58,856 bases of DNA, filler included, from Platydemus manokwari (GCA_037951405.1; 5 parts of 5 records of this genome joined end to end with filler, not necessarily neighbours in it), one strand, 5' to 3'; shown: positions 11,603-33,569, counted from the whole stretch's first letter. Notes: generated by a model from the letters alone, not told the origin. Numbers and translations: made by a program.

Positions 11603-12540
11603 TGGCAATGTTGGAACACATTAAAGAAAATTTTGGAACACACAAACTACAAGAAGAATATGAAAAATATTGTTAAAACCATATTCAAGAGCGTCCCGAC
11701 ATTTTCAATGCCGTATTTTTAAGAGATCGCAAGAATAAAAATCGCCAGAAACGAAAGAGGAAGAAAGAGAAACGAAAATCAACAGAAGAAAGCTTTGGAA
11801 ATTGAAAAATATTTGAAAGAAAATATTTTGGAAATTGGAAACAATGTTCTAGAAAAACTCGATAAAGTATTTTCAGATAATTTTAAAGAAATATTGGAGC
11901 TCTTGAAACGAACATTGGAAAGCGAAAAAAAGTAAATTATTCGAAAATCAAAAATTAAAAATATATTGGAGGTCTTCTCAAATAATTAAAGAATCAAAAT
12001 AATTTCGAGGTCATATTATATTAAAAAGAATGTAACTACAATAACTATAACAGATTTTTATTTTTCGATAAATTTAATGGAATTGGCTAATGAATATCCG
12101 AAAACTGTGAGATTATCAATACCAATAAATTTTAAGATATTAAAGATATTTGCAAAAGGGATCTAGAATTCTGGAAAACTATAATCTAAAAAACTCGAAT
12201 CTGTTAATTTATTTAATTATATGTGATATTTTTAATTAATTGGTTTTCATTAGAATTGTGATGTTTTAATTTTTGTGTTGCTTTACAAAAACAAAAAACC
12301 AAAAAAGAAGAATAAATTCCAATTGCAATCTAATAATACGAGCCAGTCCTAAACAAGATATTGTAATCGCGTATAATTGTTTCTAGACATTCATTGCTTA
12401 TCTCACAACTTTATTAGTCCATTTCAAGTTAATTCGTACAGTTAAAAGTATTTTTGAACTATTATCTATCATCCCAAAACTATACTACAGAACACATATT
12501 TAGTTTGAAACCAATTTAACTAGAAACTAAGCAATTACAA

Positions 12541-14217
12541 ATGGCGAGGACACCCTATACGAAAGAATCAAGGCACATCATGACACCATGGAGAGGTTGA
12601 ATAATCATAGCTCATAATCTCAAGGGAAAATTAGCTGCAATGGAAATAAAGATGACAGAAATTCTGTCTCAGAAACCTCTATGAATACCGTTTCAGTATA
12701 CCAAGAAGTCAGGGATGGCTTGCATATCACGATTAAGGAACATTTATTAAAATCATGTGGAGAGCCATGAAGAAATGTAATATCACGAATAATCTGGATA
12801 GTATGAGGCATCTATTGGAAATTAGAGCTCAAATAGAAAGTCTATAAAAGTGAGAATCAACAAAGAAAAATTCGTAGAAATAAAAATATAAGAATTGCGC
12901 AAAGCTATCAGAACAGACACAGAATTAATTATAAAAGAACAGAATGACCAGCAAGATAATGAAGATAACCATTACATTTTAGAATATGTATTTAAAATAG
13001 AGGAATTGTAATACCAACCGAAAAATCTACCCATGCTGTCGATTTATATAGCCAGATCTCATGGGTAAACCAATTCATACTCCCACTTCGAATGAAAATC
13101 GGAAAACGAGGAAGAAGCCCAATCAAAAAGCAGATCCGAGGCTACTTCAATAAATCGATACGGCCACTGGGACGCGTATTTTTAACCCCTAATCCAATAG
13201 ACAATTATAAATTAAATAACAATTAGAACACAAACACCAATATCTCTCCATCTTTTCAAATCAGATTCCAACAATACAAACAGATGTAAAACCATTCCAA
13301 CAACGCAAACCCAAATCTAATAATCAATACAGCCAAATTTAATCAACATAAAGAAGAATCATACACTTATATATTTAACTGATCCATAAAACTTATACTT
13401 AAAACTTTAAATGGATTGACTTGTGTCACATTTTATTTTGCTTTAGTTTGAAGTGTTTAAATACTAATAATATTAACTTTATCATTATCGTGTGCATGAT
13501 TATGTTTTTTAAAAATTATCAATTTGTAAGGTTATTGTTTTAATTCTTTTAAATTGTGAATAGATTAAAACTAATGTGAGGCTACAAACTACAATTATAT
13601 GATTAAAATAACATACAATAATTAAATCAATTGAGATAGAATAGCGATTGTGATAATGAAATAGAAAGTAAAAATAAAAATTTAAAATAAATGGTGACAG
13701 TTTAAACGATAAGCAGTAATAGAAAAATGGTATATAAATACAGCATTTCTTGTGTACGTTCAGTACCAGCAATACTTGAGTAATAACAATTTATTAATAT
13801 ATCATTGTGTACGTTCAGTACCAGCAATACTAGCTGTAGACAAATAATTATTGCTAGAACAATCAATAATTTATATTAACTTTAACTTTTAGAGATTTCA
13901 GTAATCTTTAAGGTAACTTCATCCTCATACGAATTACCAAAGCCCTCTAGAACCAGTAAAACCAAACAAAAACAACTACCCAATATAGTTAATAAGTACA
14001 GATTCCGACGATTAAGTCGGATAGACTCAACAGTTGTTGAAAATTGAATTTACAATTTATATAGACCGATGGAGAATTTTCATCTTATACATAGTAGGAA
14101 TAGAAACAAGATAATAAACAAACTTACATATCGTTGAATTTTGATACACATACAAACCACAAGTACCAAGACTCAACAGTACGAATCTATGGTGTGTATA
14201 TAAACTACTTAAAATGA
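12541..14217 (+). pseudogene. Possible decayed double-jelly-roll major capsid protein gene
   Basis: LSRIDS (14012-14029) and VRIYGVYINYLK (14179-14214) resemble the C-terminal NFSRIDN and (V/L)RVYAxNYNxLR motifs of NCLDV-type capsids; upstream NQFILPL. Heavily broken, so motif-level inference only. Confidence 0.3.
13750..13831. repeat. Exact 27-bp direct repeat with 28-bp spacer
   Basis: TTGTGTACGTTCAGTACCAGCAATACT at 13750-13776 and 13805-13831. Confidence 0.9.
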
Positions 14218-17200
14218 ATCCTAGCCAAACTGCTTACTGTCCAGGAAAATCGTGCTAATCACCAAGAACATCAATAATTCCAAAATTAATTAATTCAATG
14301 AATAACCATATATTTTATCACAGACATCCCAAATGGGAAAAAGATACCAATTGTTAATAATTACTAATTCTCTGAAACTCCAAGGGCCTCGCTTATTTTA
14401 AATTATTTTTCATAAAAACCAAATTCGATCTTTTTTCCATCAATAATCAATAATTAAAAATCTATCAATTGAATTCATTCAACAAATCGCCAAAGTGAGT
14501 AACAAATACATACGAAAAATAATTGAGCATTGAAACAAATCATTAATAGAGAACGATGCGAACGATTATATTTTTTGCATAAAAGTTAATATAAAACGTA
14601 AGATGGACGATTGAAGTAGTACTGACAAATCGATTAGTAAATTAAATAAACTCAAAGATGGTACTTTTACATGGTGTTCTTATAATGCTTGTAAAATCTT
14701 GATTTTCAATTATCAACGATTTATTTTGTCTGTTACTGATAAAACTTGGTATTCCAAGGTCGGATATTCTGACGAAATCGACTCTGTGAGACTATACTTG
14801 TGTTCGTAGAAGACATATTGACAAAAGTTCATTTTTCCGAGTAAATTTAGAATCAATTTTGAGAACAATGCTATGAGAATACTCATTACCAAGGACAAAT
14901 TAGTCTAAATAAAGTGTTGAAACACTTTATGAGAACAAGTCGAGCCACCAAAATTCCTCAACAACTAGTTTTCAGAATACCAATTTTAAAAAATTTATCA
15001 TTAAAAAGAATTCAACACACCTGATTCACATAAAACGTTAACATCAAAGATCATTTAATTTAATTTTATTATATCTTAAGAATAGAGCTGGAGACCAATC
15101 AATTTTGATTCGACAATCCAACTCGGATATTAACGAATAACATAATTTTTACAGCGTGTCGGCTGTTTATATGTCACGGTTGTCAACTCGGAATTTTATT
15201 ATTATTACTAACAAAGACCAGAAAAACAAGAACATTAATAATTTATGTTTATGATGAGCCAAACAAGTAATCAATCAATTTGTTAAATCAAATAAGATCA
15301 TCTGTTGAGAATCGGGGTACCACTGCAATTCAAATCGTCTAAATATAAGTGTATAAAAATAATAGCATTATTTGATTAATATTTTAAAATCAATAGTGAA
15401 TTGAATAGAATGTTGGTGTATACAAACAAACACTTCCAATATTAGTTTTACCGATATAAATCATAAAATATTATGGAATATTCTTTGAAAAGATTATATT
15501 TATTTGTCTTATTTTACATCTATTTTTTATATTAGAATTTAATACTAGCCATCGGTGAAATACGGAATACCTTTGGAATTAGATGGATGAATTCGGATTA
15601 AAAAACAAAAAACACCTTAGTGCTTGTTATAATTTTGAATCGACCTATACTCCGAGTGACGAAGACTACAGTTATTTTCCGGTTTTATTACGATAGAAAA
15701 TTTTTATGTTATGGTAATAATTTTTTGGAATCTATTGTTTATATTTAAAACTTATTTGGATATTGACGATAGTAATAAAAATATTCATTGACCTAAAATA
15801 AATTAACCAGAATAAGAAATTATTCAACCATTATTAAAAGTTAATCTAAGAAAATAGTTTAAATAATTACCTATATAATTCACCTAACAAAAGAAAAACA
15901 CTCATTATTTTCCAGAAATAATAGTGAAATGTATTTAAACCAAAATTATTAATAAAACAAATAGATATTAAATCATGACATAAACAGGATAATCGAAAGC
16001 CTGTAATTTGAAAACCATTAGGAACACGTTAATTTCACAAAACAATTTACGCCTACATTGATTCAAGAAGTAGAAGAATTACCAGTAAAAGAAACAGACA
16101 CAGGTACAATCATCGTTCTTAATGAATCCATTTATCTTAAATTATGTGTTAATTAAAAATATTTTTATACTTTGTGATTTTTATATATCATGAATTCTGT
16201 GTTAATTAAAATATTTTCTGAAATATAAGTTCCAGCAAAACCATTGGTGTCCAATTAATCATCTACGTATTAAAATAAATAGAGCAAATAAATCTACATT
16301 GTATAATTTTCCATACAATTTAGAAATTAACACCAAATAAAGAAAATTAATTGCTATTCCAAGAGAGAATTTAACCCATTAATTTTAAAAATCACCAATT
16401 TTTCTTTACCAGCGTGAAAAGCGGATTTGATATAAATACCAACGCGGGGATATTCAGTAGCCCATTATTTCAAATCGAAAGGAAGAAATATTTGATTCAT
16501 TTAAACCTTGTTAGAGCCCTTATATTGTCATATCAAATTTATTTGTCTAAACTTTATAATTATTATATATTTTGAGGAACATATCGAACATAACAACAAT
16601 GTTAACAAACTCATCAGAGATCAAGCCCATCCAATATCGAAAATTATCAAATTCGATCCCAATTAAAACTCTGATTCCAAAATTTTAATAGCCTTTATTC
16701 AGTCAAATCCAATAATCCAATCATTAGTACTAATCATTGATTGTCAATCATCAACACACTTTATTGCAATTAAGATTTTAAAGGTAAAAATGAGATACGA
16801 TGAGACAGATTGGTTATATGAAAAAGAATGCATAAAAGTCGATAAGCAAATAGCACACTTCTGTCACTCCCATAATCTTCATATTATAAGTAGAGTGCGA
16901 GGTGAAAGAACAACAAATAATGTTTAATACACCTGGACTACTGTCATAGACCTCACTGAGACTGATATGGAAGTGTCGCAGATCAAAAGAGAGACTGATA
17001 AGAAAGAAAATGAGAGCACCCAAGTATCAAAGAGGTGGTGTCTAAAAGGAACAACAAAGTAATACCCTTTTATAAATATTTGACAAGCGAATATTATTTT
17101 TGTCAAAGTCAAACCAAGTTCTGTTCATAGCTATCTAATTATCTAAAGATTATCCATGAATTCGAACTCAAAAAACTATAACGTACCCTCATTTCATCAA

Positions 17201-18779
17201 TTATTAATATTTATATTGTTAATGTTTAAAGGTTCGTCAGTTAATCGAACAATATCTTTTCATTTATAATACTCAATTATTACTTATTAAAGCTTTGTTA
17301 TAAATTCTCTCGAGTGCCAATATATTTAAACAAATTCAAGTGACGAGGTACTTGTGCGATAAACTACTAAGTCCTTGCAACGACACTTGTTCGCTTATGA
17401 CAAAGTCTATGTTGTGAATATTCTGGTCTCATTGCAGACCGAATAAGAACTATATAAAAGAATTCTAATTTCATAAATGAAGATAAATTATACTGAAGTT
17501 TTTAATTTTATACGCATAATAATCTCTAGTCGAAGATTGATATTGTATTATTAGAAATATTTAGAAGGAAAACGATATTTTATTAGTTTCATTCCAAAGG
17601 GATCTCCAAAGGAAAATTGATATCACATTATTCTCATTTCAAGCGAACCTTTAGAAAAAAAATTATATAATAATTATTTATATAATTCTTAATTTTATTT
17701 ATTCACACGTGGTCTTCTACGTAATCTTCAACTATTATAATCCATTCTCCTTAATATTTTCAGATAGGAAAGATATATTTGTACATATTATATTGCTATA
17801 TAAGAAAAAAGTAGATGATTGCATTTCAAAAAAATTTTCAACATCCCATAAAAATTAAAATATCAAAAAGTTGATTTCAATTTATTTTTATCTTATTAAC
17901 TCATAGTTAAATTTTTGCTTATTGAAATTGCATTTTAATATTTATTAAAGGCACGAAGTTATTGAAATAAACTTTATTGTATATGTTAAGAACTGCTTTA
18001 TATATGCGTGTATATATGCGAATGTGTGTGTAAAATGCGAAATTACCAAAAGCTGTTAAGCTATTAGACGAAAAAAATTAAATTTCAATCTAAGCCAAAT
18101 TAAAGTCCAACATGGTTAATGAAAGCAACACATAAATCAATGACAAAAATATAATTAAGTATATTTGAAGTTAGAATGAGCGGAAACCAATAAGCAGAAA
18201 CCTTAAGAATAAAATGCGTTCTTAAAAATAAAACTATACTCTTAAAATTAACAATACAGTTAATTAACAATACAAAACAAAAATAATATTAATAAGTTAT
18301 TAATCCTACAATTATATATCCAGGTAATTTTATAAATAATTAAGAATTAATATTAATTTATTGTGGATCATTTTTTTCAGTACTGCGAATTTTCCCAAAT
18401 AATACCTCAATTTAACTTTTCTTTTTCCATCCTTAACTTTGCTGCAATAAAATAAACAAGCATAAAACAAGCTTGCAAAATTAATTTACTCCATTCATCA
18501 TGTCGAACACAAAAGTCAAACTTTGTTTATGAAAAACATAAATGCATTGAGTAAAATAATAAACATCGAAAAAGATTAATTAACTTTCAATTATCAATGG
18601 TTAGTTAAATTAATTTTTGAAAAATTTATTCATTTGGAATTGATGAACAAAAAAGGCAATTACCTTCATTAATACTTAAAGTTGTTTGGATAGTTTATTT
18701 GGAAACAATATTTTCTTTTATCTGTACATATCTATTTTAAAAGAATATTCTTCATGAATAAAATGTAATATTTGAAAAA

Positions 18780-20080
18780 CATTTCTCTGACAAAACCTCC
18801 ATGGCTCTATCTATTGATTCAATGTTTCAAAATGGTCCAGAAAAGAGAACAACTATAATGCTGTATTGATAGTTTTATTTGATACTAATCACTATTAAAT
18901 AATGTCCTTTTAATAATCATCCACCCAATGATTCTGATGATCAATGGTTATGTTTAAGAATTAATTTTGTACAAGACATTTAGGAGGATGCTAATACGTT
19001 AACACGAATGAACTATATTCTCAAAGCATGCCAAATATCGTATCAATAAGAAAATCTTCGTAATATATACAAATAATTAACTTTTTCTTATTTCAAAACA
19101 TATATCCTATATTACCATTGCGTATTTAAAATTAGAATACATGATTCCCATATGCAATTCTTAGTATCCTTTGAGAACCTATTTTGTTATTCCAATATGC
19201 AGAGGCATTCAAACTATTGTATACACCTAAAAGAAATTATGAAAACATAATTAATGAATTTCCAAACTCAAGCACAAAACTTACACACTCAAAAACTAAC
19301 CTATCAAAATCTTTTAAATGAAACAAACAGTGAGAATCTCATAATTAAAATAAATAAAAATATATGAAAAACTGAAATCATAAAATAAATAAAATAAAAC
19401 ATAATAAAAATAACTATTATGTTAAATGGATTATACATTCTTGAACATACGGCAAAAAGTAGTTTTATTCGTTAAATATAAAAATATCTAGTGTTAAATA
19501 ATGTCTAAGCTTAATACTTCCAAAAGAGTTAGTTCACAAATCGCAAGGGGAAATTAAATCAATTATAAAATCAATAATTTATACTAAATTCGATCTCCAC
19601 ACTGGTCAGCAAATTATGAAAATATCTAATCTCCATTACTTATAAATCAACATATAAAGACAGAAGCCAAACATCTTATGAGAATCCAAGATTATATACT
19701 TTAATAAATTTGAAAGCCAGTGCAAGTTATTAAGTGATAATGTAAATGTGATCCAATGAGTTTTATTAATGACAACGTGTTCCTAGTTTTTATAGTTTTC
19801 CCGTCTCAAGAGACTCATTTTATATGGAAGACCAGTGTATTCATTGTGAACCTTTTAATTTTGAGTCTTGTATAGTTGAAAGATTTGATCCAACATTTAA
19901 AAGTGTATTCTCATCCTTTTTTATTATATATTATTTTCCTTTTTCACAGAAACCAAACAACACGATATGCTATTTATGTCAAACTTGCTTCTACCGCTAC
20001 ATGTTAATAAGATTTTGAAAAGTCAAAGCCACTCTAAAAAGATGTTACGAGTAGTGGACGGGAATTGACGTAAATATTTG
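18780..20080 (+). mobile_element. Highly decayed protein-primed family B DNA polymerase (second Polinton-like type)
   Basis: LGG then YVNTNELYSQSMP (18995-19033; cf. motif A DxNSLYPxxM), then IYPILPLRI and KLEYMIPICN (19100-19158; cf. HPVLPxR..KLxFPLC), in the expected order. Boundaries approximate. Confidence 0.5.
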
Positions 20081-20444
20081 AAAAAATATCGACATTAAAA
20101 ATAAATATAGCCTCAAATTTTTTTTATTTTTTTGTCAATTTCAGAATTTAAATCGACTATTATTATGTTAAGAAATAATACCGATTAGTATAAAAAGAAT
20201 GCTTTATCGAATTTCCAATTAAAGTTTCAAACTTTTTGACCTTGGCTCATTTGGAAAATCTATATAATGTTGTGGGTCTCTATTTAAAATTCCCAAAGGC
20301 TTCACATATTAATTCATAGAGCTCAAATTCCTAAGGTCTGTAAAATTATGTTTACTGGATGTATTTAGTTTAATCAATATGAGCTAATATGTAATATATT
20401 AAAAAAGAAATTTAACATTCTAATTTAGCAATTTTATTAATATG

Positions 20445-21084: not shown

Positions 21085-23186
21085 AGAAGTAATTAAAATG
21101 ATGTTGTTTTCCAATTATTGATGAAATTTGTCCTCTTATTCCCTGTTACATCATTTCATACATTGTTTAATCAGTAAATAACTCAATATTGGTTTCTTTT
21201 AATCCTGATTCCCATGTTAAAGATGTTATTGAAACATAATGAACAGGATCTTTGATTTATATAATTGGTTCTTAAAGATTCAATTGAGCCAGCTAATATA
21301 TTTACGTCTTGCTTTAAATATAAGACTATGTAATCCCATAATGTTTAACTATTGAATTTATTCCAAATATCTTGAGCTCTCTAATATTCTTCTTCTGTTA
21401 TTCCACTGAATTTTAATTCAAAATAAAAACTTTCTATTGAGGGTAATTTAATGTCATTTAATATTTTAAATGAACTTATATAATCATTTGGATAAATACG
21501 ATTCTCCTAAATAATTAAAAAAAATGTTCATAAACCTCTTTTTTTAATTCTAGAAATTCATCATCTTTCATTAATTTAGTTATCTTATCTAGGGAGTTTA
21601 GGAATAGTCTTAGTGGGTTTGTAAATCTCATACAGTCATAATTTAAGGAAATATAAATTTCTTTTGTTAATGGTAGTATTTTGATTGTAGTATTTTTAAT
21701 GATAGTATTTGTGGGTTTTATATGTTGAGTTGATGCATAAATTCGAGCTGTTTTATTTTTTGCAAAGAAAACACATCGATTTCTTGTTTTAACTGGTTTG
21801 AGTTATATTAGTTTAGGTAGTAGTATTTTGATCTCCTTATCATTATCCCATATTTTTGTAAGATCCTTTATCACTTGATAAAAATAATATTTCAATCCAT
21901 AATGAAAATATAATAAAAAATCTTTTAGTTTCCTCTATAATTGTTCTCTTTGAGATAATGATCATAATTAATAACTTTGATTATTGGTTCCACGATTGCA
22001 CTTGGATTCCTAATTTGTATTTCCCAACTTAAGTGACAAATATTTATTTTACTAATTTTCTTTTTCAATAAATACAATTAGTGGAATTATTATTGTGTAC
22101 TTTTAATTAAAATCGATTTTTATTTTCTACAATCCAGTTATAAAATTCCTTAATACAATTCTCTCCTTTAAATAATTTGTTTTCATTTTCTATTATATCA
22201 AGATATCTTGAAATTAATTTTAAATGAACACAAGAAGGAATTTGTTTGCTTATAATTTCAGTATTTTTTCCTCCTTGTCCTTGTTCTTTTGGAATATTTA
22301 CACTTTTTTCATCGGCAACCAATTTAAAAGAATATTTGGAATTTTTAAACCTTGGAATATTTTCATTATTAACCTTCTTACTTTACATAATTGTTTTTGT
22401 CATTTCTTTTCCATTTTTACCAAATATTCGTTGATTTTTGTCAAAACCAATTTCTTTTACAAAGTAAAACCAACATTTATCACTGACAGTTGTTTTTGAT
22501 TTGGTCTTAATTTTTAATTTAATTCTCCGCTCAAAAATTGTTCAAAGTTATTAATGAGACCATAATGTGTTACACCAATTTATAAATATAATAATTTGAT
22601 ACCTTGATATTCTATTTTTTCTAAAATTATAGATTGGAAATAATTTATAGTTTTTCCCGTTTCTTCTTCCCTATGTACATCTTTTAACCTTTAACCTTTG
22701 ATAAATTATCATCTAATGTCAGAGGAAAATATTTGATTATTTCTAATAATTGATCTTCCTTAATTTGCTCTTCATCGCTTTTTAATGCTTGATTTGAACT
22801 AAGTGCCATTGTATTGTCCCCTTTTTCAATTGCATTATTTTGTAAAATAATCTTAACACTTATTTGAAATTTAATGTTTAAATATTTATTTAAGAATTTG
22901 AAAATTCCATAAGATTCTTCTGAAATATGATTAATTTGATGTTTGTTGGTTGAGATATTTTTTTAATCTTATAGGTTTTGTAAATATCTTTCATATTTTT
23001 ATTGTTATGAATTGATTCTCCTTCATTATCTTTGACAAACAAAATTTGTTAGCGTTTAAAAACCGAGCTACGCTCATTTGTTATTTTATTACATTTTGCA
23101 ATATGCTTTTTGGATTTTTCGTGAGCTTTTAGACTCTGAATCGTTTTACAAGTTTAGTGGCAAATTTTGCGTTTATGCGCACACAT
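21085..23186 (-). mobile_element. Polinton/Maverick pPolB pseudogene, N-terminal two-thirds (copy A)
   Basis: C2H2-like KICH*TCKTIQSLKAHEKSKKH; THYGLINN; ADEK...FKGENCIKEF; CHLS(G)KY endonuclease-VII-like insert; ILPLTKEIYISLNYDCMRF; DPVHYVSITSLTWESGLKETNIELFTD*TMYEMM*QGIRG. Many stops and frameshifts. Confidence 0.85.
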
Positions 23187-23798
23187 TTTTAATATTTATT
23201 TTTTTATACAGTTTTAATTTTATGGTTTTCTAAATTGTTTTTTCAATATAATATATAAGTAGTAGTGTATGTTAGACCTATATCAATGCAATTATATCTC
23301 AATTTTGATCTGTTTTTTCAAATGTAATATCACTAACAAATTTGGTAAATTTTTGAAAATAGATTGCTTGATTTCCTTCTTAAATATATTAATAATCTGT
23401 AGGAACAACATAAAGTGAAAAACTAAAAACTTTGTATTTCTTTCATACTTCATTTTTATCAGGAATTTTTATGTAATTTATTATCATTAATATTATAAAC
23501 AGATTAATATTATTATCAACCTATTGCTCAACTTAAACCTGATATAATTAATGGAAATGAGGCTAATAACAGTTAATAAAGCCCACCAGACTTTTGTTTA
23601 TATATATATATATATGACTTATTTTAGAATTATGTTACTCTATATGCTTTTTTATGTCTCTTGAGATTTTGAAACTTGATTTTTCTCACTTGAATATTAT
23701 CCAATGAAATTTGAAATGATAGACCAATCATTAAATTCCAAATCAAATTAAAATATTTTATTAATATTTTACTTATTTTTATAATCTGATTATGACAC

Positions 23799-24692
23799 AT
23801 GCTGTATTTGTTGTTGTTTTTGATTGATTTTGTTGATTGTGATGATTTATTTTCTATTGACAATGCTTGTGTTAACAATCCAATGGAAACTCTTACAATG
23901 TTCTCCAAGATAAAATGTAGCATCTACTGTAGTTCGACCACATGTAGAGCATTTCAATTTGTTGAGGTGACATCGCAATGCTATTTGTATGAGTTTGGTG
24001 AAGTTTGTAAATCGAATTGTAACAAGACCACAATATTTATCAAAAACAAATTCAAGGATGAAGTAAGCTCATTTCCAATAACATTTACTTTAATATCTCC
24101 ATTTCAGAATTTCATAAAATCAAAAAGTGTTGCTTTTCAACTTTTAAATTGCGTGGAAGTCCCTTATGCCATTGGCGATCCTTCTGTTTTCAATATCATC
24201 AATAATCAGGCAATACCAATTCTCACCGATAATGATAACAAATTGATAATGGCTGTCGGATTTTTGAATTTCAGTAAAATGATAGTTGTTCCCAAGACTG
24301 AAATCGTAGAGAATATCAACAAAGTTGTAAAAAATGAGCGAATGATAAATAATTTCGTTACCTATCTGACAAACGGTGAATGCAGAAATTATTCCCTTTG
24401 CTACATCTCAATAGATGTTTATAAGAAGTATTTTGGAATAAAGAATCGAGTGATTGGAGTGAGTGATAACTCAATATTTGATTTAAATGACTTCATGTCA
24501 AATGTTAAAATTAATCACTGGCACATCATTTTTGGTGGAACTACGTGGTCAGGCAACATAGAGTCATATACAATAGAGCTGGTCAAACTTTATGGGATTT
24601 GTCTAACAAATATTGCAGGTAATTCGGATTTCCATATCAATCGAAACCTTTCTGATGACATTTTAAAATATGAAAACAATAATTGCATGTAG
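23799..24692 (+). CDS. Intronless secreted protein: PAN/apple-like domain plus TCAF/FAM115 N-terminal-like domain, 297 aa
   Basis: Intact 894-nt ORF in AT-rich DNA. Signal peptide; C..SKIKCSIYC....CRAFQF....QCYLY (PAN pattern). GDPSVFNIINNQAIPILTDNDNKLIMAVGF..SKMIVV and IIFGGTTW resemble the TCAF N-terminus (PSELLLIG..AFPV....GQVLIAAS.YG.GR.VV; LLIGGQAW). No HExxH motif. AATAAA not evident. Confidence 0.8.
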   Translation: MLYLLLFLIDFVDCDDLFSIDNACVNNPMETLTMFSKIKCSIYCSSTTCRAFQFVEVTSQCYLYEFGEVCKSNCNKTTIFIKNKFKDEVSSFPITFTLISPFQNFIKSKSVAFQLLNCVEVPYAIGDPSVFNIINNQAIPILTDNDNKLIMAVGFLNFSKMIVVPKTEIVENINKVVKNERMINNFVTYLTNGECRNYSLCYISIDVYKKYFGIKNRVIGVSDNSIFDLNDFMSNVKINHWHIIFGGTTWSGNIESYTIELVKLYGICLTNIAGNSDFHINRNLSDDILKYENNNCM

Positions 24693-27066: not shown

Positions 27067-28381
27067 ACTTTAAATATTAATTGAAAAGACATTAATAAAA
27101 ATTTAGAAATGAGTTTGATTTTTAGAAATAAAATGGAGATAATTATTTACAGAATTCAATCAATAAAAGAGTACCTGGATAATTTAAGGAATAATTTAAT
27201 GGTAAATTTTTAACAGAATGATTTGCTATAAGATCAAAATATATACAAAGAACTTTACAACAAACTAAAATTAAACCAAAGAAATCTCAGAGGAAGTAAT
27301 TAATAAAAGTATGGTGATGGCATTATTTAAAAATTATTTATTTAATAATGAAAATAATTATCGAAATGTTATATGAATGGGTTCTGATAGACATGATATT
27401 AAAGTATCAAAAACAAAGATATTAACTCGGCATAATTTCAATCAAAAGATATTTGTTTACGAGAATGGAATTAATACTTTGCTTTTCAATTATATTATAT
27501 TATTATTTTTTACTTTGATGTCACCTGATAACCTTGTTAACTTATGATTATGAAATTTTTAAATTTCTTGTAATTCACTTTAATATTTTTCTTCAAACTC
27601 TATAATGTGTTCCATTTTAATTCTTGATGAATCTTTTATTCCTGTTACTGTTTATTCCAGTAAATCTTTAATAATATCTTGAGACTTAATTATTTGTTCA
27701 TCAATCAATATATTGTCCGACAAAGCTTTTAGCTGCAATAAATATAATTGATCAAAACCATTGTTTAATTGATTCACAAACTTCTTTATAAATCTTTTTT
27801 CATCTTAATACCTTATTCAATATGAAAAGACTCTCCGATAACTGAATTTATTATTGTTAATAAAAATTTCCTATATCACGATATAGAGTAATAATTGGAG
27901 AATTTCCAGAATCAGAAAGACTTTGTAAAATTAGTTGTTAAAATACCTAAAATATTTCCTGATATCAAAATTGATTACTTTAAACCAATATCAACATTAG
28001 TCTATTTACTTCAAAATTTACTAAAGTACCTCATAAATTTTTCTAAAAATCCGTTTTCATTCAATGCTAAAGTTATTATCATTTACTTTTAATACATCGT
28101 TTTCAAAAATTAAAAGTCCAGAGCGCTTTCAGTACAAGATTTTAAAAGGATTCAAATAAATTTCATTTACATCTATGTTTTTTCTGAAATTGTAACGTTT
28201 CATATCTAGTATTTTTTATGAAATCATATGATGCTCTACCCATATGCGAATTTAAATGAACTCAAGCTTTTGTACATTTTAGTTATATTTATTTCAATTC
28301 ATTTCTTGGCTTTAGTTGCGCTAATTCTTTTTTTTTATAATTAGTTTCTAAATCTGTTATCTAAGGTTGTTTTACTTGATT

Positions 28382-28540
28382 TACTGATCCTGATATTGCT
28401 GGAAATGTAGCCAATAATGGTAAAAACCAATGACATTTTTGTATTAAAATCTTCTTTAAACGATATTTTCTATAATTTTTATTAGTTCATTAAATATCTC
28501 TTTAGTTATTTTTATTTCTTCACCATTATTGTATAAAGGT
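28382..28540 (-). pseudogene. Remnant of a Polinton/adintovirus small basic 'GGFLP' protein gene
   Basis: RKYRLKKILIQKCHWFLPLLATFPAISG matches the KKxLxQxGGFLPxL pattern (adenovirus protein X-like cleavage motif), with the GG mutated. Confidence 0.55.
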
Positions 28541-29948
28541 TTCTTCTTTCTATCTTTATTATTTGTTTTAAAAATTTGAATTCGTTGAGCAGTTTCTCCC
28601 CACTATTAATAATTTTTAAAATTCATATTTAAAAAATGTCAAAGAGACAATAATAATAAAACTCCAACGAACATTTGTTTTTATAGCAATCTTTGAACAA
28701 TAGTTCATCATCTTCTATAGTTTTTTCAAGTCAGTAATTAATTTTATAGTTATTTATATTTTTCCCTTATTATTATAAAAATATTTCTGATTTCCATCTT
28801 TTCCAATTTGTTTAAAAAATTTTCTTTCATTGAAAAGTTTCTCCCAATTATCACAAATTTTATAATTTATTTTAAAAAGATATCAAAGAAGTCTTTTTAA
28901 AAAATAAACTTTACATATTACATCAATAACAAATTTTAGAAGATCTTTTGACCTTTAATTATTGTTTCAACCGCTTTTTACTGTAATGCAACAATATGGT
29001 TTTAATTTTAAAATGGAATCTTTTTCATTTTCTACAGTTACAACACATCCATTTATAATTAATTTTCATCTTATGCATTTACATCAAAAGGTAAAATGAA
29101 ATAAAATTTTTGAAATTCTAGTATAATTTGTTGTATATTAATTTAAAATTCTTACATGAATTAAGAAATGCTAAATAAGGTTTTATACGATCATTTAAAT
29201 TGATTTAAAATTGCATTTTATTAGCTGGATAAGGAAAATAATTTAATCGCATTTTTAATGTTTTTGTTTTATTATTATTGTTATTATTTTGAATTAATTT
29301 TCTCCAATTCAATTTCAGAATCTTTACATCCGATTTTTTAATATTTTGATTCATTTATTTATATTTCTACTTGCCAAATTACCAGAAGTAGACCAAATAC
29401 AATATCAACTACGAGGAAAAAAGAAAAGAATAATCGAATCATTGAATAACACAGGGCCATCCAATAATTATTTTAATTTTTTATTAACTTTAATAATATT
29501 ATGTAATAATCACATCACAAACAGAAAATTTGTCCTCAAATACACGATATCCATGGAAATTCGCTTTTTTACAAGACCCATTATATGACAACAAATGCCC
29601 AGAAATCTTACAAATAGTTCAAATCTGGACAGGCGAAATTAGAAACAAGGTTTCAATAGACCCACCATCTGATGGCATCGCGTGTAGATGGGTATATGAG
29701 GTAAAATATAGGGTAATATAAAATTCGGACTGAGAAAAGGATATAATTCGACGGAATCGACACATCAAAATACGTTTGATAATCTTCGAACAGATATAAG
29801 ATATTTGTTATTGATAACATATTACGAAATGAAAGTAATAAGAGATGACTTGTATGATTTTAATCGGTATATGCAAACCCATCAAGACAGTGAAGTCGTG
29901 AAGTTCATTGAAGAAAGGAACAAAGTGCAAATTAAACTTACTTCAACT

Positions 29949-31159: not shown

Positions 31160-33569
31160 GAGTGTAAATAACAAAGTTGTGAATAAACATCGAAAACTAT
31201 TCAGAATAGGATAGACATTACAAAAAATTGTAATGCCAATACGAAAAGGTAATATATTAATGACAGTTCCATTTATAATAGCAGCTGATATAGCGTGTGT
31301 TAATGAGATGAAAACTAATGTAGAAAAAAATGAGGTAAGAGCTAACAAAACCAGAGTTTTATGTAATCAAATACTTCTTGTATTTATTTAAAATCAATTT
31401 CTACATATCCAGATTTAATAAAGGATGAAAGTAAATTGTTTCAAAGTGAAAATTATACTAAAGATTTTATCAATTGTTTTGTGAGAAACGAAAATAGATT
31501 TCAAGCAAAATTAAAATCAAAATTTGTAATCGAAAACGGGTATATAAAAATATTACCCTTAGCGGAGGAGGCTTATATTTCATTTAATTATGATTGCATA
31601 AGATTCATAAATTCATTAAGATTATTTCAAACTCTTTACGTAACATAACTACATTTATGAAGGATGAAGAATTTATATAATTTTAAAAAAGCTTTTAGAT
31701 AACTATCGAATAATAAAAGAAAATGAATTTATCTAAACAATTATATAACATCACTTGAACAGATTAAATGATACAATTTCGCCATTAATTGAATGTTTAT
31801 ATGCCAAATTAGAATAAACTGGAATAACGAAACAAGAATATCAAAGACCTCAAATCATTTGGAATAAATTTAACTAAAGATTATATGGAAATATATAATC
31901 GTATATTTAAAACAACATGTAAAGTTTTTTAGCCAGTTCTATAGAAAGTTTCAGAAAAAAATGTATAATTAATAGAAATCCTCATGTTTCTTATACTTCA
32001 TTTGAATGAAAATTTAAAGAAACAAATATTGTATCAAACGATGTATGTAATGATGTAATAAGGAATAAGATTCGGAATTTCTTAAGTAATGCAAAAATAA
32101 TATGTTATAGCAAATAATAAATTTATTAATCATGAATGTGAAAACTCCAAATTTAGTGATCAATATGAGGAAAATAAATTATTAGAAAATAATATGGAGA
32201 AATTATTACATCAGGAATCTTCGATAGGAATAATTTATATATTGATGGTGATAAGTTATATGGTTGAGCATTGACTGAAACATTATCAAATTAAAAATTA
32301 AAATGCGCTGAACAAGTTGATATTAAAAAATAATAATAAATTAGATGGATTTATCTCAATATTAAATCGATTACCACTAAATTCAGAACAAAGAAAGATT
32401 TTGGAAGTTGTTTTAGGATGTAAAGAATTGACAAAATATTTTTCCATTAGCTCCAAAAAAGAAAGCATATTTAAAATTATTTAGTGAGAATCAAAAAGAC
32501 AAAATAAAAAGGGAAAAGATTACTCTAGCAGTGTTATCAATCTGTGATCAAGCAGATCAACAAAATCATGTTGAGGTGAATAGGAATCATTAGTTTTATT
32601 TAAAAATGATTATGAAAATAAAAAGGAACAAATCAGAAAAATCCATACATTTTAAGCTTTAAATTAGAAAAACAAAGAAAAAGTACCTGGTAAATTCAAG
32701 AATGAATTACTATACAACAAACAAAAATTTAAACAAAGAAGTCCCAAAGGACGTAATAAATAAAAACATGGTTATGGAATTGTTTATTTAATAATTAAAA
32801 TAATTATAAAGATATCATAAGAATAGGTTCCAATAAACATGATATTCAGGAATAAATATAATTTAATGAAAATGTGTTTAATTGCTTCACAAGCTTCTAT
32901 AAAAATCTTTATCTTTTAACAACCTTATCCAATATGAAATGACTCTATAAAACTGGATTTAGTAATTTTACAGTGTCAGAAATTATTTGTGAATTATTTG
33001 TTTAAATACCTCAAAACTCCACCAGGTATCGAAATTTAATATTTAAAACCAATATCAACTTTAGTCCATTTACTTTATAATTTAATATAGTGCCGCATTA
33101 TTTTTTCAAAAAACTCATTCATACAATTCTCAATCCAAAGGTTATTAACACTTACTTTTAATACATCGTTTTTTGTAAGTTCAAGAGTTTGGAAGACTTT
33201 TAGCATATGTTTTGACAAATTCATTAGGTTTTCCAAACTAATTGGTTTTTGACGGTAAGTTAATATATATCTCATTCAACACAGAAGGACAATCTCATTT
33301 TCATTCAATTCTAATATATCTCATTCAATTTTAATAAAGTTTAAAATATCATCTTTGAGACGGTTAATACGACTCGAAATTTGGATAATTTTCTATTAAT
33401 ATATATTTGGTATCTCATATTTCTTGATCGGATGAAGTTCTATTAATAATTATAAATTCCAGGAGATTACTCTTTGTTGGGTAATTTAGAAATATACTGG
33501 TCGACAAGATGTTTAACCCGGTCTTAATTAGTATACATTAAGGCGTTTTCCCAATTATTATTGTTGAAT
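31160..33569 (+). mobile_element. Polinton/Maverick copy C: internally deleted pPolB pseudogene plus convergent ORF remnant
   Basis: VPFIIAAD (Exo I); KILPLAEEAYISFNYDCIRFINSLRLF; motif A region IDGDKLYG*AL (~32240-32275); KILEVVLG; NKEKVPGKFKNE (~32670-32706). The minus-strand remnant at 32900-33275 is shared with copy B. Confidence 0.85.

Follow-up and report, generated by a model that had tools for sequence, protein, structure and literature searches.

Polintons or Mavericks (adintoviruses) are described in PMC4028283 as elements encoding pPolB, an RVE integrase, an ATPase, a protease and both double- and single-jelly-roll capsid proteins, and passages of PMC8502044 report that degraded, endogenised copies are widespread in animal germlines. 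The present analysis concerns positions 11610-16560 of a 58,856-nucleotide stretch of Platydemus manokwari DNA (GCA_037951405.1; five parts joined end to end with filler, hereafter the window). A first-pass annotation had tentatively read this 5-kb block as a row of co-oriented, decayed genes of a fossil virus, pairing a capsid of the type found in nucleocytoplasmic large DNA viruses (NCLDV, Nucleocytoviricota) with a distinct pPolB on the same contig. We consider it likely, with a probability of roughly 0.8, that the block is a mosaic of unrelated old repeats which includes one broken copy of a Polinton accessory gene, and that the capsid-like motifs are chance readings. The locus is likely ordinary genomic debris and no new virus. 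The contig concerned (G000:C1186211; 9,947 bases, 28% GC) corresponds in its entirety to window positions 10498-20444 and comes from a fragmented, AT-rich assembly of 911 Mb. The genes in its neighbourhood appear to be of animal type.

A broken copy of a Polinton-linked gene

The leftmost repeat of the block, family A, is a broken copy of a 228-residue open reading frame (ORF). The window copy reaches a frameshift-aware score of 374 against a control maximum of 60, and it holds the only clearly stop-poor frame of the block (5 stops at 11.6-12.2 kb, as against 12 and 15 in the other frames). The family as a whole, with 116 genome matches, displays the codon bias of a gene (p 2e-12), and one uninterrupted 228-residue copy is present among the scored matches (L084). 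The window copy itself is dead, and its codons 1-17 are missing at the junction with a neighbouring gag fragment.

Other copies of family A are found in the company of Polinton genes. A Polinton integrase, ATPase, penton or pPolB is present on 13 of 34 contigs carrying family A (14 of 35 loci, two of them from one contig), and core genes also occur on 5 of 20 further, more diverged contigs, which brings the total to 18 of 54 contigs versus 2 of 76 control loci drawn from other repeat families. Beside the remaining families of the block, core genes were found at 0 of 4 (J), 1 of 24 (BC), 0 of 15 (D) and 0 of 2 (I) loci, and reference copies of D, BC, H, I, J and E gave no match in 96 Polinton-related loci (342 kb). 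The arrangement around family A recurs: the gene is convergent with the end of the integrase, and is followed by a repeat ORF, the ATPase, PW and the penton. A convergent integrase tail was seen in L127, L140, L096, L138, L139, L089, L095 and L371, while L414 carries A, ATPase, PW and penton in that order. The labels PW and penton in these layouts are our own putative assignments from position. Contigs closest to the window copy at the DNA level include one with an ATPase (L051) and two with an integrase (L095 and L423). Judged by the neighbours of its relatives, the segment at 11597-12298 is the broken remainder of a gene that the Polintons of this genome likely carry as an accessory.

The Polintons with a PF21738-type capsid resemble the locus in carrying family A, which in them converges with the integrase and precedes ATPase, PW and penton; they differ in that this accessory gene, which has no Pfam match, is the only one detected here, integrase, ATPase, protease, capsid and terminal inverted repeats (TIRs) being undetected. 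When the pPolB, capsid, penton, ATPase, integrase, protease and reverse transcriptase proteins of the genome were compared with the contig by tblastn and frameshift-aware searches, only background was obtained. The contig gave no match to the RVE integrase, with no integrase tail after the window copy of A, and at the locus the A32/FtsK ATPase, penton and capsid stayed at shuffle level. One distant query (L070) gave no signal for an adenain-like protease at the locus. A search for TIRs returned only short AT-rich inverted pairs (up to 37 nt), the ends of an element possibly falling beyond the 9,947 bases of the contig. The linked core genes that had been suggested as a check were present, as ATPase and penton, beside other family A copies, and went undetected at the window locus itself.

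The capsid-like motifs

The two motifs behind the capsid proposal are both there, LSRIDS from position 14012 onward and VRIYGVYINYLK at 14179-14214. Contrary to that proposal, they do not share one ORF, since their frames differ, 57.7 codons separate the Ser of SRID from the Tyr at 14188, and two stops interrupt the SRID frame. The likeness to the Nucleocytoviricota major capsid protein (PF04451) amounts to the four residues SRID and, downstream, a loose Y-x4-N-x-L-K reading. In a comparison set of 81 ORFs with NFSRIDN from 80 IMG/VR loci, the capsids close with NFSRIDN and then a Y-A/G-x-N-Y-N strand, and this terminal strand lies 17-44 residues after SRID in 76 of the 77 ORFs where it was detected. 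The window motifs, in contrast, are 58 codons apart, and the window shows neither the upstream QPxGTxNF nor the downstream SGMGG seen in NCLDV capsids.

Nor are the motifs conserved. Neither SRID nor the VRIYGVYINYLK motif was read in any of 18 copies of family D (three of them poorly aligned), the repeat in which LSRIDS lies, and only 0-14 of the 36 bases of the VRIYGVYINYLK segment are common to these copies. Copies of family D show a third-position excess in a frame other than that of SRID (p 4e-4 and 4e-3); LSRIDS is an off-frame reading of this family. The DNA upstream of SRID belongs to a different, non-coding repeat, the tail of family BC. For family D itself, no intact copy and no PDB, Pfam or protein match were found.

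The frameshift-aware comparison with viral capsids, another check that had been named, stayed at shuffle or control level with both NCLDV and Polinton profiles. A profile of the 81 NCLDV capsids scored 45 at 13951-14260, versus 43.9 +/- 7.0 for shuffled sequence, a value that 121 of 300 shuffles equalled or exceeded; over larger intervals the observed score was reached by between 1 of 30 and 17 of 80 shuffles, and the best matches mostly ended outside the motif region. The capsids of the genome are of the PF21738 Polinton type (93 matches), and a profile built from them gave 90 on the block against a control maximum of 107, the same profile scoring 238 on a true capsid relic at window 28.5-30 kb. 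A search of the genome with PF04451 found no match, its controls being silent too, and phmmer against PDB returned no capsid at E<=10 for either motif frame. These results advise caution, since AT-rich repeat debris can yield short readings that resemble capsid motifs.

A mosaic of dispersed repeats

Segment families were delimited by DNA searches of the genome (65-86% identity) and cover 69% of 11610-16560 as dispersed repeats (Table 1). Among 248 loci compared, 136 match the contig; more than one segment class was found by DNA in 3, and the order and orientation of the window in none. What had been taken for a single viral block hence consists of independent repeat families that are not co-linear elsewhere. 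Co-orientation breaks down at 14.31-14.69 kb: this segment is homologous to a CD225-like gene, over its 3' end and flank, and lies on the minus strand.

Table 1. Features of contig G000:C1186211 in window coordinates (families named by letter)
Feature	Position	Strand	Remarks
Young high-copy short repeat	10498..10705		About 36 scored copies, 89-97% identity over query 1-208; contig start, outside block
LTR-retrotransposon gag-region fragment	10713..11557	+	78-86% to L381-L383
Family A, decayed copy and 3' spacer	11597..12298	+	Residues ~18-223 of 228-aa ORF; stops, frameshifts
Family J, small unclassified dispersed repeat	12283..12534		4 copies, 68-82%
Family BC, unclassified old repeat	12715..13998	+	K/E-rich ORF remnant ~12.7-13.2 kb; non-coding tail
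Family D, 3' part of decayed ORF family (560 bp or more)	14010..14178	+	Apparently beta-rich
VRIYGVYINYLK reading	14179..14214	+	Non-repeated DNA just beyond family D homology; uncovered run 14179-14309
Family E, multicopy CD225/dispanin-like host gene (last codons and 3' flank)	14310..14694	-	68-81% to L022-L035
Family F, short repeat	14686..14882		One other contig, C1208543, 86-89%
Family G repeat	15237..15306		DNA search of genome
Family H, ~370-bp non-coding dispersed repeat	15490..15746		At least 15 scored copies, 77-86%
Family I, unclassified low-copy repeat	16129..16570		74% to L113, L115
Possible very decayed pPolB exonuclease-region remnant	19124..19304	+	Best sub-profile z 3.6; outside block

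The composition and reading frames of the block were reported correctly in part. The plus strand is indeed A-rich (A 0.36-0.46 and T 0.24-0.39, by segment), and decayed plus-strand coding sequence is borne out at 11.6-12.2 kb, with weaker support for 12.7-13.2 and 14.0-14.18 kb. A single frame from 12.5 to 14.2 kb is contradicted by the 16-33 stops per frame at 13.2-14.0 kb, a repeat different from that at 14.0-14.18 kb, and the supposed ORF at 15.5 kb falls in a repeat (15490-15746) without codon periodicity (p 0.75). The tetranucleotide TGTG, thought to mark spacers, is scattered over coding and non-coding parts alike; its 18 occurrences in the block (3.6/kb) exceed those in mononucleotide shuffles (8.4 +/- 2.8), and their density resembles that of other DNA in the genome (3.1/kb in 238 loci). 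Pfam scans of the block frames gave nothing relevant, which counts for little, since such scanning also failed to pick up clear pPolB and capsid relics in other parts of the window.

The region had also been described as free of retroelements, and yet a long terminal repeat (LTR) retrotransposon gag fragment at 10713-11557 adjoins the block. Its third-position excess is significant (p 6e-4), and the ORF of its relative L382 matches Retrotrans_gag (PF03732, E 0.004) below the curated cut-off; compared with an LTR-retrotransposon gag, the stretch at 10.7-11.55 kb is a fragment only. It contains what we take to be a CX2HX4HX4C-like knuckle. In two loci, the window (11557-11597) and L093 (G000:C1716566), a gag zinc-knuckle fragment stands directly in place of the beginning of family A. 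In L093 the gag fragment and family A lie in one open frame, which is probably a coincidence.

Copies of family BC have a common right end near 13995, and the window copy is internally deleted; an intact ORF was looked for in this family and none was found. A perfect 27-nt direct duplication (13750-13776 and 13805-13831) sits at the deletion point of the window copy. Family E has 18 genome matches and a codon bias (p 2e-4), and the ORF of L022 matches CD225 (PF04505, E 1e-4), again below the curated cut-off; relative to the CD225/dispanin family, segment E is a fragment only. That family (L022 on G000:C1590077, and others) comprises open copies and many broken ones, with more than 1 kb of sequence in common.

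The putative polymerase

The pairing with a distinct pPolB at 18.8-20.1 kb finds weak support only. Neither hmmsearch nor tblastn detected pPolB in this interval, clear relics occurring only in another stretch of the window, and a profile of 49 relatives found nothing for 18.6-20.4 kb taken whole. Sub-profile matches within 18.6-20.4 kb are not collinear. The best of them, at 19124-19304, has a score that 6 of 150 shuffles also attained; it may represent a very old pPolB remnant but does not amount to a distinct polymerase. A search for further copies of the frame at 18.9-19.35 kb found none. Of the fossil virus as first described, there stands the Polinton-linked gene family at 11.6-12.3 kb, and neither the NCLDV capsid, the single 5-kb block nor the pPolB pairing.

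Alternative readings and proposed history

The whole contig might be one very old Polinton, with family A on the left and pPolB at 18.8-20 kb, broken up by later insertions, in which D, BC or I would be further, unrecognised Polinton genes. The Polinton linkage of family A, the weak pPolB remnant that shares its contig and strand, and the coding appearance of D and of the left part of BC on the plus strand all suit this idea, which we nevertheless regard as improbable: D, BC and I stand beside Polinton genes in next to none of their loci and are absent from the 96 Polinton-related loci, no integrase tail follows the window copy of A, no TIR-like repeat was seen, and the pPolB sub-profile matches lack collinearity. 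A fossil Polinton-like virus whose NCLDV-type major capsid ends at 14.2 kb, as originally suggested, is less probable still and already largely refuted. Such an animal virus would bear on the origin of giant viruses, and the motifs do occur in the right order, form a pair that is rare in shuffles, and recall the way in which real NCLDV capsids end; this significance is unsupported here, however, because spacing, frames and flanking motifs are wrong, all 18 homologous copies lack the motifs, the upstream DNA is a different non-coding repeat, profile scores equal those of shuffles and PDB offers no capsid.

Several observations weigh against the mosaic of repeats that we prefer. One contig (L094) carries a protein-level copy of A followed by a piece of BC, oriented as in the window, and 36 of the 54 family A contigs have no Polinton core gene. 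The mean z over pPolB sub-profiles at 19.1-19.3 kb beat 150 of 150 shuffles. In calibration, a decayed capsid tail was detected at 30% replacement and usually at 40%, and was lost at 50-60%, figures which are optimistic in that the test genes were also in the profile. A pattern for the motif pair, devised post hoc, occurred in 2 of 1000 local shuffles and not once in 688 kb of fetched loci; we gave this rarity less weight, on the grounds that the observation had shaped the pattern and that many motif pairs could be picked from a 59-kb window. Family D appears from its codon pattern to have been coding and could still be of viral origin, and the helix-turn-helix (HTH) resemblance of family A, considered below, reaches a Z of only about 6.

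On the mosaic reading, a Polinton would have integrated at this site long ago. An LTR element with gag, on the left, and other insertions or deletions, on the right, would then have reduced it to a single accessory gene. Fragments of a host gene and of repeats may have accumulated subsequently, with all parts decaying neutrally. The locus itself is of little weight, decayed Polinton fragments amid repeats being common in animal genomes.

The family A protein

Family A is of more use as a marker gene for this group of Polintons, and its product combines a confident model with a lack of annotation. The AlphaFold (AF2) model is all-helical (pLDDT 93), and the protein is therefore not a capsid. 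There are 55 unnamed relatives at E<=0.001, which have no Pfam family in common, and the ten that were looked up sit on contigs of 0.9-2.1 kb. No match was obtained in a word-index protein search, in Atlas (full length), or in viral contigs, metagenome contigs or phages, and structural comparison gave none in Foldseek at E<=0.001 or in VIA at Z>=8.

For the C-terminal domain, the only rows covering most of it are Raf1 (Z 6.1, root-mean-square deviation (rmsd) 5.5, 90 residues aligned) and Spo0J (Z 5.9, rmsd 3.7, 90 aligned), tied with unrelated rows. The Atlas comparison reached TM 0.60 to a DUF1016/YhcG cluster, below the bar for naming, and 2 of 50 members matched DUF3102 (best E 0.012). Every score for the resemblance to the ParB/Spo0J HTH, DUF1016_N, DUF3102 and Raf1 N-terminal helical domains is one that common helical arrangements can also reach; ParB-, DUF1016_N- and DUF3102-like HTH assignments are concordant, none rises above background, and they are weak leads. 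As a tentative suggestion, somewhat under even odds in our judgement, the intact protein is predicted to combine a coiled coil with a ParB/DUF1016_N-like HTH that would bind the DNA of the element. It is less probable, and at present doubtful, that family A represents an undescribed, widespread Polinton protein of this coiled-coil and HTH build that ties animal Polintons to a DNA-binding module of phage or plasmid type, with family D perhaps a second viral structural gene. If so, that module may handle the Polinton genome.

Literature searches brought up no paper that evidently describes family A. The name Adintoc is given to conserved unknown adintovirus proteins in section 3.2 of PMC8502044, whose supplement, word-searched only in part, may hold family A under that name; the gene may be one of these Adintoc proteins. 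Passages of PMC11161782 make no mention of such a protein.

Other Polinton material in the genome and window

Several Polinton groups coexist in this genome, with 93 PF21738 capsid, 33 Pox_A32 (E<=0.1) and 25 pPolB matches, the last including a 1213-residue open frame on C1601075. Clear decayed Polinton relics are also present in the window itself, within the third of its joined parts, at 21250-22900 (-), 27200-27500 (+), 28181-29339 (-) and 31400-32000 (+). These relics at 21-32 kb comprise pPolB pieces (E to 3e-21), a PF21738-type capsid (E 7e-13) and a pX/PZ-like piece. A 298-residue open frame at window 23796-24692 (+) has an N-terminal hydrophobic stretch, a Cys-rich segment and no Pfam match at E<=0.01.

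The contig G000:C444443 (24,255 bp; L069-L071) is GC-rich (45-48% versus about 27%) and densely coding, with long open frames. Its genes include pPolB (PF03175, E 2e-15), a P-loop ATPase and an adenain-like protease (Peptidase_C5, E 8e-7). Three long paralogous ORFs in tandem, with 24-33% identity among them, gave no Pfam, PDB, NCLDV-capsid or Polinton-capsid match, and the contig ends have no repeat in common. The contig has the look of an almost complete Polinton- or adenovirus-like virus of an unusual kind, which may be exogenous.

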